Source: a plasmid
Assembly: GCF_053078305.1 (NCBI RefSeq)
Contig: NZ_CP166875.1
Direction: 5' to 3' (one strand)
DNA length: 64,000 nucleotides
Positions 2,108-30,643 of this stretch are shown here, in pieces. The stretch's first letter is position 1, and each line of letters starts with the position of its first letter. The position numbers and the translations under genes were made by a program. The notes below the pieces were generated by a model that did no database searches, was not told where the DNA came from, and saw only the letters and a list, made by a program, of their open reading frames with translations.

Positions 2108-3096
2108 AACGGTGTATGTGGTTGTGTGTGGTTTTGCTGCTGACTGGCCATGTTCCCGCAGCCTCAGCGGACGCTGCCTGTGAAGGGCGGTTTGTTAACC
2201 CGATCACGGATATCTGCTGGAACTGCATTTTTCCACTGTCGCTGGGCAGCACAAAAGTGAGTCAGGGGAAGGTGCCGGATACAATAAACCCGTCAATGCC
2301 GATCCAGTTCTGTCCTGCGCCACCGCCTGTATTTAAACGTATCGGGCTGGCTATTGGTTACTGGGAGCCGATGGCACTGACGGATGTGACCCGCAGTCCG
2401 GGATGTATGGTAAATCTTGGAATAACAATCCCGGAGCTGGGGAAAACCGGGCAGGGAACGGCCAAAAAAGACGACAAGCAGGTGAACGGGGCATTTTACC
2501 ATGTTCACTGGTACAAATACCCGCTGACATACTGGCTGAGTATTATCACCTCAGCAGGATGTCTGATGGGCGGCGATATGGATATCGGGTACATCTCAGA
2601 AATTGACCCTACCTGGACAGACAGCAGTCTGACCACCATTCTCAACCCGGAAGCGGTCATCTTTGCAAATCCGATAGCACAGGGAGCCTGTGCGGTGGAT
2701 GCCATTGCCAGTGCCTTTAACAAGCCGCTGGATATCCTGTTCTGGTGTGCCGGTTCGCAGGGCAGTATGTATCCGTTTAATGGCTGGGTGAGCAATGAAT
2801 CCAGTCCGTTGCAGTCATCCCTGCTGGTCAGTGAACGGATGGCGTTTAAGCTCCACCGTCAGGGAATGATAATGAACAGCATCGGCGTGGATGTGGCTGT
2901 CTGTTATGAATATCCGTCGCCCATACTTCCCAAAGAGCGCTGGCGTTATCAGATGGTGAATATGTACCCGGACAGCGGACAGTGCCATCCGTTCGGACGC
3001 AGTGTGATGCGCTGGGAGACGGGAAAAAATCCGCCCAACACAAAGAAAAACTTCGGTTACCTGATGTGGCGTAAACGTAACTGTGTGTTCCTGTAA
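2104..3096 (+). CDS. traU: TraU
   Basis: 330 aa, signal peptide, Cys-rich; size and synteny match F TraU. Confidence 0.9.
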   Translation: MKRCMWLCVVLLLTGHVPAASADAACEGRFVNPITDICWNCIFPLSLGSTKVSQGKVPDTINPSMPIQFCPAPPPVFKRIGLAIGYWEPMALTDVTRSPGCMVNLGITIPELGKTGQGTAKKDDKQVNGAFYHVHWYKYPLTYWLSIITSAGCLMGGDMDIGYISEIDPTWTDSSLTTILNPEAVIFANPIAQGACAVDAIASAFNKPLDILFWCAGSQGSMYPFNGWVSNESSPLQSSLLVSERMAFKLHRQGMIMNSIGVDVAVCYEYPSPILPKERWRYQMVNMYPDSGQCHPFGRSVMRWETGKNPPNTKKNFGYLMWRKRNCVFL

Positions 3097-3109
3097 TCGG
3101 GAAAATGTG

Positions 3110-3652
3110 ATGCGCAACAGTAAAGTGCAACTTGTATCAATCCTCAGACAGGTCAGTCTTTCACTGAACACGGAGCCATTACGACAGTTTATCTCTCTGA
3201 GGGAGATTGCAGAAGAGACGGATCACGTCGCTGCTCGTTTGTCCGGAGGAAAACGGGTAACACCTGCACAAATTTATGAATTGTGTGCACAGTTATGGAT
3301 GGCCAGGATGAAGGCAGTTGAAGTTTATGGGCGACATTCTGATGTGGTGATGTCTCTGGAAAGACAGACTGATTTACTTGAGGCTGCAGGCAACGTATTA
3401 AAACAACGCTGGTTTTACCGTCCGTGGGGATCATCAAAAGCATCTGTGATGCTGACAGGTATACTGGTGATCCCCGTATTTCTGGTTTTATCCGGATTGT
3501 TGAGTGCAGGGTATCCCGGGTTATTATGTATTACCGTATCCGGCTGTTATTTTTCCGGGATTGCCGCTTTTTCTTTGCGGGCTAAAGATCCAGTCGGGCT
3601 TTGCTGGTCTGTGTTCTGTTTTATTCTGCTATATCTGCTCCTGAAAAAATGA
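3110..3652 (+). CDS. hypothetical protein with soluble N-domain and C-terminal hydrophobic helices (non-F cargo)
   Basis: ORF 3083..3652, probable ATG at 3110; AT-rich codon usage unlike flanking tra genes; no family recognised. Confidence 0.35.
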   Translation: MRNSKVQLVSILRQVSLSLNTEPLRQFISLREIAEETDHVAARLSGGKRVTPAQIYELCAQLWMARMKAVEVYGRHSDVVMSLERQTDLLEAAGNVLKQRWFYRPWGSSKASVMLTGILVIPVFLVLSGLLSAGYPGLLCITVSGCYFSGIAAFSLRAKDPVGLCWSVFCFILLYLLLKK

Positions 3653-3654
3653 GA

Positions 3655-4446
3655 TTAATTATTCTGCGTCTGAATAATGAATGCTCCGCCATTGCGATGT
3701 ACTCTGAATCCATTGGGATGCCTCCTGCAGGAGAACAGTCTGTAGCGGGTTTTTCCCCCATACCTCAGATTCAGGACAATAGTTTCACAGAGTGGCGTCT
3801 TCCTTGCCTTTTCTTTATATAGTATACCTTTTTTTTTCAGGTTATTAGCTATTCTGTTTCGGATTCCGTGGCGCAGGATGTGAGACTGTAATGTGATCGT
3901 GTTATAAGACGGATAGCATAATATGAAATGTTCAATATTTCCGACAAGCTTGTCTGCGTTGATTCTTGAGGATACTTTGACAGATGGTCTGGTAATATAT
4001 TGTGGATGTATATCGATTCTCAGGCTGGATATAAAGGGGGTAAGATAAAGACCCGTAACAGGCGTTCTGAGCATGGACGATGAGAAAAAGAACAGAAAAA
4101 ACCATAGTGTAATTACAGATATCCCTGACCTGATAATTACAGAGTATATGTTTCCGCTGAAAGGTGAATAATCTTTTTGTATCATCAGATGTATGATGGA
4201 TGACAGTAAAAACAAAATAAAGCCAGCCGGGAATGGTCTTCTCAGAACTCTGAAAAAGAGACTGTTATTTATGAAGCGAAAACGAAGCAGGACCGTTAAC
4301 AACAGCGATAAGAATATCAGTATTATGACCATTTGCACTCCGAAACTGATACATGAACAGATGTTTAAGGGTGATATTAAATGAGTGAAGGGACAAGAGT
4401 AAATGATTTTGCTTATGTCAAACAGGCCCTTTTGGCGGTGTTTCAT
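3655..4446 (-). CDS. hypothetical polytopic membrane protein (may instead be antisense shadow of + strand genes)
   Basis: 263-aa ORF uninterrupted in AT-rich DNA; F/L/I-rich; overlaps small + strand ORF 4193..4384. Confidence 0.3.
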   Translation of the reverse strand: MKHRQKGLFDISKIIYSCPFTHLISPLNICSCISFGVQMVIILIFLSLLLTVLLRFRFINNSLFFRVLRRPFPAGFILFLLSSIIHLMIQKDYSPFSGNIYSVIIRSGISVITLWFFLFFFSSSMLRTPVTGLYLTPFISSLRIDIHPQYITRPSVKVSSRINADKLVGNIEHFILCYPSYNTITLQSHILRHGIRNRIANNLKKKGILYKEKARKTPLCETIVLNLRYGGKTRYRLFSCRRHPNGFRVHRNGGAFIIQTQNN

Positions 4447-4827
4447 CGGATGAATACCCGGCCGCTCACCAGGCTATGTGAAAAAGATGATATTCAGCGT
4501 GGAATTGCAGATATTCAATGGATGTTACATCATCACTATTATCCATCACCCGGACAGGTTTGTTTTATAATATTTTTATTGCGGGATGAGAAGTTCCGGG
4601 TAGTGCGGGAAGATGGGCGTCAGTCATTCCTTGCAGTTGAAATTCAGTCGTTAATTGATGTTCTGAAAGATATACGGAAATACCTGCAGTTTGTGACACG
4701 GTATGACTGTGATGGTTGTATTATCAGGCTGCATGCCAGTGCTGAACGTAAATACCTGTGGATTTTCCTTGAGTGTGTAATTGTGTTTATTTTGTGTGCT
4801 GTGCTGTTTTTTCTGATTATCTGTTAA
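4381..4827 (+). CDS. hypothetical protein with C-terminal TM anchor (non-F cargo)
   Basis: 148 aa; start overlaps stop of upstream 63-aa ORF (ATGA), suggesting translational coupling; no family recognised. Confidence 0.4.
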   Translation: MSEGTRVNDFAYVKQALLAVFHRMNTRPLTRLCEKDDIQRGIADIQWMLHHHYYPSPGQVCFIIFLLRDEKFRVVREDGRQSFLAVEIQSLIDVLKDIRKYLQFVTRYDCDGCIIRLHASAERKYLWIFLECVIVFILCAVLFFLIIC

Positions 4828-4835
4828 AAACACCT

Positions 4836-5015
4836 GGTGGTGAACATGTACCCGGACAGCGGACAGCGGACAGCGGACAGCGGACAGCGGACAGCGGACA
4901 GTGCCATCCGTTCGGGCGCAGTGTGATGCGCCGGGAGACGGAAAAAAATCCGCCTGACACAAAGAAAAACTTCGGTTACCTGATGTGGCGTAAACGTAAC
5001 TGTGTATTTCTGTAA
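4836..5015. repeat. direct duplication of the traU 3' end (copy of ~2953..3096) carrying an expanded heptamer tract
   Basis: Near-identical to traU 3' end including the TraU C-terminal codons and stop; read directly from sequence. Confidence 0.85.
4854..4888. repeat. tandem heptanucleotide GGACAGC x5 plus one degenerate unit
   Basis: Native traU copy at 2970..2983 has one perfect plus one degenerate unit; duplicate has five perfect units. Confidence 0.9.
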
Positions 5016-5041
5016 CTTAAACAAAAAGAGGAATATTTTAA

Positions 5042-5374
5042 ATGGAAAAGAAATTAAGCAGTAAATACATTCATATTTATATGAGTATATCCTGTGTGTT
5101 CATTCGTTTGACAGGCAAAGCATTAAAATTGTTTCCTTTTGCACTGGTGATGCTATTCACGGTGTTGTTTTATTTTATGCCTGAAAATGTTATCTGTGAC
5201 ATTATCAGTGAATGGCAGAGAAGTGATGTGTCAGACAGGATCAGAGTTATCAGACTATATCTGGGAACAACTTTTTTATGCACCTGGGCGGCTGTTTTTT
5301 TGGAGTTTCTCTGCTCTGATGAGTTTCTGCCGGGAAAGAGATTAAACAAAAATGAAGAAGAGAATAACGGGTAA
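5042..5374 (+). CDS. hypothetical small membrane protein (non-F cargo)
   Basis: 110-aa ORF, hydrophobic segments, AT-rich. Confidence 0.3.
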   Translation: MEKKLSSKYIHIYMSISCVFIRLTGKALKLFPFALVMLFTVLFYFMPENVICDIISEWQRSDVSDRIRVIRLYLGTTFLCTWAAVFLEFLCSDEFLPGKRLNKNEEENNG

Positions 5375-5602
5375 TATCTGACTCATTTTATGTGCATCGG
5401 TCAGAAATGAATTAATGATTTAACAGAGTGAATATCCGGTATCGTTTATCTAATTGCTGCCAGTCTCAGAAAAAAGATAAATGGAGAAAGAAGTTAATCA
5501 ACGATCTTCGTTGTGTTTAACATGGCGTCAGTTATCTCCAGGCTTGCTCTATTGAGCACCTCATTATGACGATTAATTACTGTCTGTTTGCAGGAGAATT
5601 AT

Positions 5603-6241
5603 ATGAACAAAAAAATATACATTTTATTCGCCCTGACAGCAGGATTGTTTCTTTCTGCCCATGCTTCGGAAAATGTGAATACGCCCGAAAATCGCCAGTT
5701 CCTGAAGCAGCAGGAAACACTGAGTCAGCAGTTGCGTGAAAAGCCGGACACACAACTGCAGGCATGGGCAGAACAGCAGGTCAGGGCGAATCCCCTTCAG
5801 CATGCCGATAACCAGTTTCTCGATGAACTGGTCCGTAAACAGCAGGCTGCTCAGAAAGACAAACCACAGCAGGGGGCCGTGTATTTTGTGTCGTTCTCCA
5901 TTCCCGAAGAGGGACTGAAACGGATGCTGGGAGAAACCAGGCACTACGGCATTCCGGCCACACTGCGGGGTATGGTGAACAATGACCTGAAGACTACCGC
6001 TGAAGCCGTGTTGTCCCTGGTAAAAGATGGCGCGACCGATGGTGTTCAGATTGACCCGACGTTGTTTTCACAGTACGGCATCCGCAGCGTGCCGGCCCTG
6101 GTGGTGTTCTGCAGCCAGGGGCACGACATCATCCGGGGAAATCTGCGCGTCAGGCAGGCGCTGGAAAAAGTGGCCGCCACGGGAGACTGCCGGCAGGTGG
6201 CTCAGGGACTGCTGGACGGCACCGGGGATAAGCTGCAATGA
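5603..6241 (+). CDS. trbC: TrbC
   Basis: ATG at 5603 preceded by aggag; 212 aa with signal peptide; size and synteny match F TrbC. Confidence 0.85.
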   Translation: MNKKIYILFALTAGLFLSAHASENVNTPENRQFLKQQETLSQQLREKPDTQLQAWAEQQVRANPLQHADNQFLDELVRKQQAAQKDKPQQGAVYFVSFSIPEEGLKRMLGETRHYGIPATLRGMVNNDLKTTAEAVLSLVKDGATDGVQIDPTLFSQYGIRSVPALVVFCSQGHDIIRGNLRVRQALEKVAATGDCRQVAQGLLDGTGDKLQ

Positions 6242-6618
6242 GTTTACCTGCCGGGTATTACCGGATTGAACCGGACATCCGTGCACTGGTGGCCGCGATG
6301 AACGTTCACGGATTCCGTACATATGCCTCCTGTCAGGGACATGGTTTCCCGGTCACAAAGCTGCTGCCTTATATTGCCTTTGCCTGTCCGGTAAAAATGA
6401 CTGCCCTTCTTGAGCAGCGACTGCGGCAGGATGCTGAATCAGCAATACCACGTCTGACATGGGGATGGTCGGTGAAGGGGGCTTTTAACAGTGACCTTCA
6501 GCTCTGTTTCCGGCTTCAGCCGGAAGGTCCTCATTGCTGGTATCACCGGTACTGTCGTCGTTCACTGCGTGCAGACTTCAGGACGCTGATATTGTTACTG
6601 AAGTCGTTATCTGAGTAG
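6238..6618 (+). CDS. hypothetical Cys/His-containing protein, not part of the F tra set
   Basis: 126 aa; ATGA overlap with trbC stop; no family recognised. Confidence 0.4.
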   Translation: MSLPAGYYRIEPDIRALVAAMNVHGFRTYASCQGHGFPVTKLLPYIAFACPVKMTALLEQRLRQDAESAIPRLTWGWSVKGAFNSDLQLCFRLQPEGPHCWYHRYCRRSLRADFRTLILLLKSLSE

Positions 6619-6699
6619 TAATCCCGGTACGCCAGGAAGCTCCATACACCAAAATCAACACCGTTCTGAAGTTGAGATGACATCACTTCATTCTCCAGT

Positions 6700-8616
6700 A
6701 TGGATCAGGTTATGAAAGAAAAGATAAATACCTTTTTCAGGTCTCTGAATGTTAATGACTCCGGAAGACCGCGCAATATTTGTGCAATTGTTTTTTTCCT
6801 GAGCTTTTCTGTATTTGCCGACAGCAACAGTGATTACCGGGCAGGTTCCGATTTTGCCCGTCAGATCCAGGGGCAGGGTATTGGCAGTATTCAGAGTTTT
6901 AATCCGCAGGAGAGTATCCCCGGGTATAACGCGAACCCGGATGAGACGCAGTATTACGGTGGGGTGACTGCCGGCGGGGATGGCGGTCTGAAAAATAACG
7001 GCACCACACAATGGGCAACCAGTGAAACCGGCAAAACCATCACAGAGTCATTCATGAACAAGCCGAAAGACATTCTGTCACCGGATGCGCCGTTTATTCA
7101 GACCGGCAGGGATGTGGTGAACCGGGCTGACAGTATCGTGGGAAATACCGGACAGCAGTGCAGTGCGCAGCAGATAAACCGCAGTGAATTCACAAACTAT
7201 ACCTGTGAACGTGACACGATGGTGGAGGAATATTGTTCCAGGACAGCCAGGATCACAGGAGACTGGAAATACACGGATGAATATCGTGAGGTGACGATAC
7301 CGCACTCACAGTTCCGGTTCAGTATGAACGGTCTGAAACTGGTGTTCAGCGTTACCGTACCTGTTGCCGGGACAGTGGAAAGTGCCTCGCTGTCGGCTCA
7401 TGCAGGGCTATATTTCCTTAACTCCCGTTACGACTTTATGAACACAGCCTTTAATGTGCAACTGGTTACAGGACAGAGCGGGACTTTCACCATACCTGTG
7501 CCCTCCGGGTTTTCTGTCACACAGGGGCAGGTTCTGACCGGTAGTGGCTGTACTGCAAACGGTAATTGCCTCCCGCACGGGAATGGTGACAGGATGGTCT
7601 ATGAATCGCTTGTCAGTGGTGCTTCCACCTTTACGCTGAAACTCAGGATGAAGGTCCGTGATAAGGAATGGGTTCCACGGGTGGAGTGGGTGGAGAGTTG
7701 TCCGTTTAATAAAGCGGATGGCGTGCTGAAAGGCACTGAGTGTTCAGAGCCGGGTGGTACGAAAACGGGTGTGATGGAAGGTAAAACCTGGAGCATCACA
7801 CAGGCGTGCTGGGCATACCGGGATAAATATGTCACACAGTCCGCAGATAACGGCACCTGTCAGAAATATGTCGATAATCCGGCCTGTACGCTGGCCTCAC
7901 GTCAGTGCGCGTTTTATTCCGATGAGGGAGCTTGTCTGCATGAGTATGCCACGTACTCCTGCGAGTCCAGAACGTCCGGAAAAGTGATGGTCTGTGGTGG
8001 TGATGTCTTCTGCCTTGACGGTGAATGCGACAAGGCGCAGAGCGGAAAAAGCAGTGATTTTGGTGAGGCAGTATCACAGCTGGCTGCGCTTGCCGCCGCA
8101 GGTAAGGATGTTGCCGCCCTGAATGGTGTGGATGTCAGGGCTTTCACGGGCGAGGCGAAATTCTGCCGTAAGGCCGCAGCCGGCTTCAGTAACTGCTGTA
8201 AGGATGGTGGCTGGGGTCAGGATGTGGGTTTGGCGAAGTGCAACAGCGAAGAAAAGGCGCTGGGAAAGGCAAAGGACAACAAACTGACGGTGAGTGTGGG
8301 CGAGTTCTGCTCCCGGAAAGTGCTGGGTGTCTGTCTGCAGAAAAAGCGCAGTTACTGCCAGTTTGATTCGAAGCTGGCGCAGATAGTCCAGCAGCAGGGG
8401 CGTAACGGGCAGTTGCGTATCGGGTTTGGCAGCGCAAAAAGTCCTGACTGCCGGGGAATAACCGTGGATGAACTGCAGCGTATTAAGTTCGACCAGCTGG
8501 ACTTCACTAACTTCTACGAAGACCTGATGAATAACCAGAAAATCCCGGATAATGGTGCGCTGACCGAAAAAGTGAAAGAGCAGATTGCCGGTCAGCTGAA
8601 ACAGGTGGGGCAGTAA
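6700..8616 (+). CDS. traN: TraN mating pair stabilisation protein
   Basis: Large Cys-rich protein with signal peptide; matches remembered TraN motifs; a later in-frame start at 6712 is possible. Confidence 0.9.
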   Translation: MDQVMKEKINTFFRSLNVNDSGRPRNICAIVFFLSFSVFADSNSDYRAGSDFARQIQGQGIGSIQSFNPQESIPGYNANPDETQYYGGVTAGGDGGLKNNGTTQWATSETGKTITESFMNKPKDILSPDAPFIQTGRDVVNRADSIVGNTGQQCSAQQINRSEFTNYTCERDTMVEEYCSRTARITGDWKYTDEYREVTIPHSQFRFSMNGLKLVFSVTVPVAGTVESASLSAHAGLYFLNSRYDFMNTAFNVQLVTGQSGTFTIPVPSGFSVTQGQVLTGSGCTANGNCLPHGNGDRMVYESLVSGASTFTLKLRMKVRDKEWVPRVEWVESCPFNKADGVLKGTECSEPGGTKTGVMEGKTWSITQACWAYRDKYVTQSADNGTCQKYVDNPACTLASRQCAFYSDEGACLHEYATYSCESRTSGKVMVCGGDVFCLDGECDKAQSGKSSDFGEAVSQLAALAAAGKDVAALNGVDVRAFTGEAKFCRKAAAGFSNCCKDGGWGQDVGLAKCNSEEKALGKAKDNKLTVSVGEFCSRKVLGVCLQKKRSYCQFDSKLAQIVQQQGRNGQLRIGFGSAKSPDCRGITVDELQRIKFDQLDFTNFYEDLMNNQKIPDNGALTEKVKEQIAGQLKQVGQ

Positions 8617-30005: not shown

Positions 30006-30210
30006 AGTGAAAAGCGGGAAATGGAGGGAATGGTCAGTAACAGGGAATGTGGTATTATCGCGGCGGGTGTCTGAGCCTTTCTGGTTCAGGCAAGACGCAG
30101 GTACTAGAAATGCGAAGACCCCACTTGTTAATCCATTAACTCGTGAGGCCTGCATGAAGTACTTGAACACTACTGATTGTAGCCTCTTCCTTGCAGAGAG
30201 GTCAAAGTTT

Positions 30211-30360
30211 ATGACGAAATATGCCCTTATCGGGTTGCTCGCCGTGTGCGCCACGGTGTTGTGTTTTTCACTGATATTCAGGGAACGGTTATGTGAGCTG
30301 AATATTCACAGGGGAAATACAGTGGTGCAGGTAACTCTGGCCTACGAAGCACGGAAGTAA
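30211..30360 (+). CDS. Hok/Gef-family type I toxin (SrnB/PndA-like)
   Basis: 49-aa peptide with N-terminal TM helix; in-frame upstream leader ORF (from 30154) as in srnB/pnd loci. Confidence 0.8.
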   Translation: MTKYALIGLLAVCATVLCFSLIFRERLCELNIHRGNTVVQVTLAYEARK

Positions 30361-30643
30361 GCTGCCGGGCGGGGACGGAAGTCCCCGCTTTCCGGAAGTG
30401 TGAGGTATTTCAGGGGCAGACACCCGACATGCCAGAAACCGCCGGTCCCGCCCGGGGCCGGCACACAGGTTAAGGCATTTCCTGTTTTTCAGCCATTTCG
30501 CAACAAAAATCACATTAAACAACAGTAATCACCGTTGATTTGTGCGCCAACACAGATCTTCGTCACAATTCTCAAGTCGCTGATTTCAAAAAACTGTAGT
30601 ATCCTCTGCGAAACGATCCCTGTTTGAGAATTGAGGAGGCGAG

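Follow-up and report, generated by a model that had tools for sequence, protein, structure and literature searches.

A small gene coupled to trbC on an F-like plasmid belongs to a conjugation-associated family with a remote likeness to TYW3/Taw3

The tra operons of F-like plasmids carry, between their essential genes, a number of small accessory genes—among them trbA, trbE, trbJ, artA, and a gene for an HNH endonuclease—that are co-transcribed with their neighbors, often translationally coupled to them, and variably present; a comparative-genomics study of F-like plasmids profiled only the named tra genes (PMC5102898). The tRNA methyltransferase TYW3 of Archaea and eukaryotes (Taw3 in Archaea; Pfam PF02676), for its part, consists of an N-terminal extension, a RAGNYA domain, and an inserted SHS2 domain, in total about 190 amino acids, and carries, as its signature, the motif (S/T)xSSCxGR (Currie et al., 2017; PMC5311493). 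In that enzyme, Asp25 and Cys48 are essential in vivo, mutation of Asp25 abolishes the binding of S-adenosylmethionine (SAM), the invariant Asp25 of SsTaw3 contacts the SAM sulfonium, Arg51 is essential, and the likewise invariant His73, at the end of strand 3 of the RAGNYA domain, binds the SAM carboxylate (PMC5311493). Here we analyzed a stretch of 64,000 nucleotides from a plasmid (NCBI RefSeq assembly GCF_053078305.1, contig NZ_CP166875.1), the whole of which we refer to as the window, in which an open reading frame (ORF) of 126 amino acids lies between trbC and traN and can be compared with both of those systems. The tested stretch is 99.9% identical to the Escherichia coli plasmid pFHI_NMBU_11_02 (IncFIA/FIC, MOBF, MPF_F).

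The ORF listing of the window places this reading frame at positions 6238–6618 of the + strand with an ATG start, and that ATG (6238–6240) overlaps the stop codon TGA of trbC (6239–6241) in an ATGA junction, whose local sequence is GCTGCAATGAGT; the extra gene coupled to trbC that had been proposed from the sequence alone, which we call the original prediction, was thus borne out. When the end of trbC and the start of the ORF are spelled out together, GGGGATAAGCTGCAATGAGT, the overlapping ATG and TGA are visible along with an upstream GGGGA. The ORF is a genuine gene under purifying selection, far beyond a chance reading frame. Pairwise comparisons with the orthologues from three other plasmids by the Nei–Gojobori method gave ratios of nonsynonymous to synonymous substitution rates (dN/dS) of 0.17–0.28, with dS values of 0.19–0.37; the G+C content of the ORF (52.8%) matches that of trbC (54.7%), traN (52.3%), and traU (52.7%); and homologues with 30–55% identity formed 44 clusters at 90% identity, a search of all proteins giving 272 representative clusters with E ≤ 1e-3. 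The features of the gene are the following:

6238..6618, + strand: the 126-amino-acid ORF (coordinates with the stop codon), encoding a basic (pI 9.5), predicted cytoplasmic, TYW3-like accessory protein (RefSeq WP_044192461.1, dN/dS, AlphaFold2).
6238..6241, + strand: ATGA overlap of the ORF start codon with the trbC stop codon, of the kind that couples translation (from the sequence).
6224..6228, + strand: Shine–Dalgarno-like GGGGA, 9 nucleotides 5' of the ATG and within the 3' end of trbC (from the sequence; a presumed role).
6265..6303, + strand: codons 10–22, I-E-P-D-I-R-A-L-V-A-A-M-N, an acidic residue and then a helix, set by the alignments against the TYW3 helix on which the SAM-contacting Asp25 is found (alignments of hidden Markov models with Protein Data Bank sequences, hhalign, AlphaFold2).
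6319..6342, + strand: codons 28–35, T-Y-A-S-C-Q-G-H, the family signature and counterpart of the TYW3 (S/T)xSSCxGR (family alignments, hhalign, PMC5311493).
6367..6381, + strand: codons 44–48, P-Y-I-A-F, the second conserved block, a strand (family alignments, AlphaFold2).

The product of this gene is covered by no name, curated family, or paper. RefSeq holds an identical product as the hypothetical protein WP_044192461.1, and the annotation "hypothetical" recurs throughout the family; as had been stated beforehand, no family was recognized, Pfam and NCBIfam both being empty for the protein at E ≤ 10. PADLOC returned nothing for the domain, and PHROGs gave only a match of 19 residues (E 0.005) to a family of unknown function. 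The protein is nevertheless no orphan: although no curated family includes it, it does belong to a broad family of conjugative elements with a remote link to TYW3/Taw3.

That family is found almost only on conjugative plasmids and on integrative and conjugative elements (ICEs). Used as the query of a tblastn search, the protein matched 878 plasmids in PLSDB, 792 of them predicted to be conjugative, whose hosts were mainly Escherichia (447), Klebsiella (288), Providencia (39), and Vibrio (35), with Salmonella, Shigella, Enterobacter, Raoultella, Aeromonas, and Citrobacter among the others; the corresponding search of 50,697 phage records gave no match. Conjugation or plasmid genes were present in 15 of the 17 neighborhoods that we inspected, the remaining two contexts being uninformative. 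Within tra regions, a member occupies the traW|traU slot in an E. coli plasmid and in pvh2 of Vibrio harveyi, the trbB|traH slot in Providencia, and the traF|traH slot in Enterobacter; another one (54% identity) lies directly 3' of an F-type trbC on a metagenomic contig, and an ICE in a metagenome-assembled genome of the Pseudomonadota has a member beside TraN-TraF-TraH-TraG. Other contexts were found as well: one member directly follows topB in an ICE that also has DnaA_N-like, AcaB, SSB, and integrase genes, another closes a type IV pilus-like operon, and one lies among SNase, ProQ, PemK, and TrbC genes. In the ICE-like region with the DnaA_N-like, AcaB, SSB, and integrase genes (L010:5755-8657), the topoisomerase III gene ends, and the family member starts, at position 8001; the coupling is thus of the kind seen with trbC, although the partner here is a gene for DNA processing.

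Two longer members were also encountered. A protein of 388 amino acids (P0160, L005:2017-3183; also in L006 and L007), encoded on small plasmid-like contigs right after ssb and near parA and RP-C genes, carries an N-terminal TYW3-like domain (TIASCQGH) fused to a C-terminal nuclease domain of the PLD type, the latter matching PLDc_2 (E 1.8e-26) and DrmC models, and being the only part that PADLOC assigned. The second, of 339 amino acids (P0057), matches the family domain in two stretches and is encoded near a fragment of a TraI_2_C relaxase; the ORFs that flank it, L008:618-1055 and L008:2173-2652, are paralogous to one another (39% identity, E 1e-18).

In most cases the family start overlaps the stop codon of the upstream gene, whichever gene that is, and an all-versus-all BLASTP of 22 neighboring ORFs identified no conserved partner gene. 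Because the contexts are so varied, the overlap of start and stop is usual, and no neighbor is conserved across contexts, the family is an accessory gene that stands by itself, is associated with conjugation, and has come more than once to occupy a co-translated position. The gene resembles the known nonessential accessory genes of F-like tra operons in size, location, and variable presence; trbA, trbE, trbJ, artA, and the HNH gene, however, have no sequence relationship to it, and, unlike most such genes, the present family also occurs in elements other than F-like ones, namely the ICEs with topB or ssb, the type IV pilus-like operon, and the plasmids with ProQ and PemK.

The link to TYW3/Taw3 emerged from profile comparisons. 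Two broad family profiles, when run against 177,635 sequences of the Protein Data Bank (PDB), put the TYW3 structures 2QG3 and 2DRV in the top two places, in that order, both times, the alignment setting D-x-x-I-x-x-L-V...N...T-x-A-S-C-x-G of the family opposite D-x-D-I-x-x-L-L...N...T-x-S-S-C-S-G of TYW3; a profile of close homologues gave no TYW3 match in the PDB, the broader profiles alone doing so. Matches to the Pfam TYW3 model below threshold were obtained with 5 of 10 members, all of which began at model position 15 and ended at 48–53; the best member scored 21.3 bits (E 1.8e-4, model positions 15–53) versus a gathering threshold of 27 bits, while the protein of the window gave none. 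A comparison by hhalign with 43 archaeal Taw3 sequences—these being genes that were fetched, whose ORFs were extracted, and all of which contained [ST]LSSCSGR—gave an alignment of 32 columns with a probability of 88% and P = 3.1e-6, versus P = 0.2 for the reversed-sequence control. A Taw3 fragment of 47 amino acids, used as the query of a protein-homologue search, found no match, and a third search for homologues of the family, made with a family profile and covering at most 8,000 candidates, contributed little. The position of Asp25 is taken by Glu11 in the window copy and, among 122 family sequences, by Asp in 79 and Glu in 41 (together 120 of 122), a substitution that is conservative rather than identical; and of the TYW3 motif, T-Y-A-S-C-Q-G-H keeps the Thr, the second Ser, the Cys, and the Gly. 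What the two groups have in common is accordingly the acidic residue with its helix and the T-x-x-S-C-x-G core, which in TYW3 hold SAM and carry the catalytic cysteine, whereas the present family is bacterial and borne on plasmids or ICEs.

The family's own pattern of conservation centers on the same region. In an alignment of 86 sequences, assembled with no selection for the motif, Gly34 and Trp77 were invariant, and L17, V18, N22, T28, S31, C32, H35, P44, Y45, F48, L73, L93, and D113 were conserved in at least 90%; the resulting signature is [DE]-x2-[IV]-x2-L-V-x2-[MLF]-N-x5-T-x-[AGS]-S-C-[QE]-G-H ... P-Y-[VI]-x-F. The several Cys and His residues mentioned in the original prediction are indeed present in this copy (Cys 32, 50, 90, 100, and 106; His 24, 35, 99, and 103), but they are not a trait of the family, in which only the C-x-G-H core is conserved. 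A zinc finger or metal cluster, as the richness in Cys and His might have suggested, was therefore rejected, since only Cys32 and His35 are conserved.

Given either a shallow alignment (pLDDT, the predicted local-distance difference test, 83.6) or a deep one (pLDDT 92.3; predicted template-modeling score 0.85), AlphaFold2 arrived at one topology: a helix at residues 12–23, strands at 27–32 and 45–49, a helix at 52–67, strands at 75–83 and 89–98, and a helix at 107–124. The predicted fold is thus a compact alpha/beta domain, in which an N-terminal helix precedes a sandwich in which four strands are combined with two helices. The protein has neither a signal peptide nor a transmembrane segment (maximal 19-residue Kyte–Doolittle mean of 1.22, with no hydrophobic segment at the N-terminus), unlike the TrbC and TraN of the window, whose signal peptides are clear, and does not share the envelope localization of TrbC, TraN, TraU, TraW, and TraF. 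From these features the protein is predicted to be cytoplasmic and to have no structural place in the secretion machine of the F type. Among the structures of BFVD, Foldseek found similar predicted folds in jumbo-phage proteins of 138–164 amino acids—PhiPA3 gp356, two proteins of 201phi2-1, and others from RaK2, Bacillus phage Kirov, and Vibrio VP4B—with a probability of 1.00, template-modeling scores of about 0.5–0.65, and, for the proteins other than that of VP4B, E values from 2e-4 to 5e-3; these proteins, which differ in having only 12–16% sequence identity to the 126-amino-acid protein, may be, to judge from the models, a phage counterpart of the family. The SAM-binding regulatory domain of MTHFR (PDB 8QA4) also resembled the model, but tied with the C-terminal domains of aminotransferases at the same Z score and with no sequence signal, so that this resemblance is probably one of generic fold.

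Several of our results weigh against a close relationship with TYW3 and against the function that we propose below. The E values of the PDB matches, 0.04–0.24, are not significant alone; the sequence link spans only about 32 columns, in the N-terminal third of the protein; and Foldseek against the PDB found nothing significant and did not recover TYW3. The first Ser of the motif is Ala in 102 of the 122 sequences, and Arg51 is replaced by His in nearly all members (at least 90% in the alignment made with no motif selection, 121 of 122 in the motif-selected one). His73 has no counterpart, His35 being the sole conserved His in the 122 sequences, and in the extended hhalign alignment the "KWH" of TYW3 faces a region that contains no His. 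The nine residues that precede Ile10 in the window copy leave no room for the first helix of the TYW3 SAM cleft. To these points must be added the outcome of the neighborhood comparison, in which no partner recurred, and that of the literature search, by accession and for TYW3 together with mobile elements, which found no relevant paper on the protein or its family. Nor does the three-part architecture of TYW3 recur here: the protein has 126 amino acids versus about 190, and the SHS2 insert, judging from length and secondary structure, appears to be absent. Because Arg51, the first Ser, His73, the SHS2 insert, and the first helix are not kept, and because the scores remain below 27 bits, the family is not a TYW3; on the present sequences the most fitting description is that of a separate, minimal sister family, a putative distant and cut-down relative. 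As to activity, a passage of PMC4417183 has wyosine derivatives absent from Bacteria, on which account the substrate of the protein must differ from that of TYW3; and a methyl transfer to the wyosine intermediate in tRNA-Phe is an implausible activity for it.

We propose, tentatively and at somewhat short of an even chance, that the protein is a cytoplasmic, cysteine-dependent, and possibly SAM-using accessory factor of conjugative elements that modifies or binds nucleic acid; of this proposal, the use of SAM, the nucleic-acid substrate, and the benefit to transfer are the parts that we infer. Because the gene is translationally coupled to tra genes, and elsewhere to topB or to genes of the ssb region, the donor would produce the protein at just the time when it expresses the transfer apparatus and the DNA-processing genes. 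SAM or a related ligand might be held in the helix cleft, while the loop of Cys32 and His35 would act during transfer on a nucleic acid, either the DNA that is passed on or an RNA, and the modification or binding would improve transfer or establishment while not being needed for the assembly of the pilus. A role with nucleic acids is hinted at by a pI in the basic range, by the RAGNYA-like sandwich, by the fusion to a PLD nuclease, and by the neighborhoods with ssb and topB. With a family that is specific to conjugation on F-type plasmids and ICEs, that is under purifying selection, and that bears a likeness to a class of methyltransferases regarded as restricted to Archaea and Eukarya, an anonymous ORF becomes a testable candidate for a transfer-linked factor of nucleic-acid modification or establishment; and in E. 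coli and Klebsiella, resistance and virulence genes are carried chiefly by F-like plasmids. A bolder version of this proposal, to which we assign only a small probability, would have the family be a hitherto unrecognized bacterial branch of the TYW3-type ("class IX") methyltransferase fold, specific to conjugative plasmids and ICEs and produced along with the transfer machinery, that chemically marks the transferred strand or a host RNA, or that travels with the DNA into the recipient, and thereby helps the element to escape restriction or to become established; if true, it would be a new kind of transfer-linked anti-defense or establishment enzyme.

A nonenzymatic adaptor is an alternative that we regard as unlikely, though deserving of attention: the RAGNYA-like sandwich would bind single-stranded DNA, RNA, the relaxosome, or the coupling protein, the protein might even be exported to the recipient by the type IV secretion system, and the TYW3-like motif would be a structural relic. 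Nucleic acids or peptides are common ligands of RAGNYA folds (PMC5311493), the pI of the protein is a basic 9.5, genes for ssb, topB, and relaxases are nearby in several elements, and two cofactor or catalytic residues of TYW3 (Arg51 and His73) are not kept, all of which would suit such an adaptor; yet the Ser-Cys-x-Gly-His loop and the acidic residues D/E11 and D113 are kept at only 30% identity and look like an active or ligand site more than a surface for binding, and neither an export signal nor a partner was identified. The same residues might instead belong to an enzyme with another chemistry, a Cys–His (plus Asp) hydrolase or transferase, or a metal site, that uses no SAM and whose kinship to TYW3 would be limited to the ancestry of the fold, or to a motif reached by convergence. 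That Cys32 and His35 are near-invariant (at least 90%) and Asp113 nearly so, that the change from Arg to His creates a Cys/His pair, and that both the SAM ligand His73 and helix 1 of the SAM cleft are missing speak for this possibility, which we nonetheless consider doubtful, our preference remaining with the possibly SAM-using accessory factor.

The site that the gene occupies bears on a further alternative. The neighbors and the spacer are:

5603..6241, + strand: trbC, the upstream gene, for a periplasmic F-type pilus-assembly protein with a signal peptide (ORF listing, RefSeq).
6619..6711, + strand: spacer of 93 nucleotides ahead of traN; in related plasmids a gene for an HNH endonuclease or extra DNA is found there.
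6712..8616, + strand: traN, the downstream gene, whose 5' end (the signal-peptide region) is unlike that of F and R100, the likeness being back near 6818.

In F and R100, trbC directly overlaps traN by means of the same ATGA with no ORF between them, and their similarity to the window picks up only inside traN, past the signal-peptide region; the view that the gene is not part of the F tra set was thereby sustained. A tblastn search with the protein of the tra regions that we fetched from F, R100, and pSLT gave no homologue (best E 0.35), so that the ORF is absent from this junction in all three, and because those plasmids lack it, the gene is dispensable for the core type IV secretion system. 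In the window the gene sits in the gap between trbC and traN but does not quite fill it, contrary to the original prediction, since 93 nucleotides (6619–6711) remain between its end and the RefSeq-annotated start of traN at 6712.

The trbC–traN slot of pSLT holds the HNH gene only. In that plasmid (NC_003277.2) the gap contains an unannotated ORF of about 140 amino acids for the HNH endonuclease (MALTRKQRERL...CAYCGCEL...HADH...), at about 30202–30624 of the fetched locus, that overlaps the start of traN; and the same HNH gene comes after the TYW3-like ORF in IncFII plasmids. Four states of the slot can therefore be distinguished: empty (F and R100), HNH only (pSLT), ORF plus HNH (IncFII), and ORF only (the window). 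A nucleotide search of PLSDB matched 3,439 plasmids to the trbC–traN region, 717 of which, or about a fifth, also matched the ORF. The order trbC-ORF-HNH-traN is the arrangement in most IncFII plasmids of E. coli and Klebsiella, whereas the arrangement that lacks the HNH gene was found in the window and in about 145 PLSDB records, as judged from at least 80% coverage of a query comprising the ORF plus the spacer. In a plasmid of Klebsiella michiganensis, trbC-ORF-traN is kept at 52% protein identity with overlaps of 4 nucleotides on both sides.

The trbC|traN junction is thus a hotspot for the swapping of accessory genes in and out, and the gene might be no more than selfish cargo of that hotspot, carried along with the neighboring HNH homing-endonuclease gene with no benefit to the plasmid. 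Such a reading would account for the variable slot and for the presence of the gene at several different tra slots; its probability is slight, however, in view of the purifying selection (dN/dS about 0.2), the retention of the same slot at the identity and with the overlaps just mentioned, the absence of the HNH gene from most contexts, and a G+C content that matches the tra genes. That the original prediction overlooked an already known Tra/Trb accessory protein of the F type, or a piece of TraN, deserves virtually no credence and was rejected, although the ORF is located inside the tra operon between trbC and traN: homology to such a protein was looked for and not found, neither NCBIfam nor Pfam giving a match at E ≤ 10 even though those libraries name TrbA, TrbE, TrbF, TrbJ, and similar proteins in the same records, and the protein has neither a homologue in the tra regions of F, R100, and pSLT nor a signal peptide.

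From 6712 to about 6818, traN begins with some 35 codons (its signal-peptide region) that show no relation to their counterparts in the F and R100 traN, the likeness returning at GACAGCAACAGTGATTACCGGGC. The contiguity of this replaced segment with the extra ORF suggests that the ORF, the spacer, and the new 5' end of traN came as one block.

Farther upstream, the interval between traU and trbC (2954–5587), which in the F plasmid amounts to only 8 nucleotides, holds an insert of low G+C content (41% over 3097–5587). The insert is bracketed by a direct repeat of 128 nucleotides from the 3' end of traU (2969–3096 and 4888–5015, 95% identical), and a further repeat of 29 nucleotides lies just upstream. 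Three hypothetical ORFs with no Pfam match are present within the insert, at about 3110–3652, 4381–4827, and 5042–5374, and the second copy of the traU repeat forms an ORF whose end is the C-terminal peptide of TraU.
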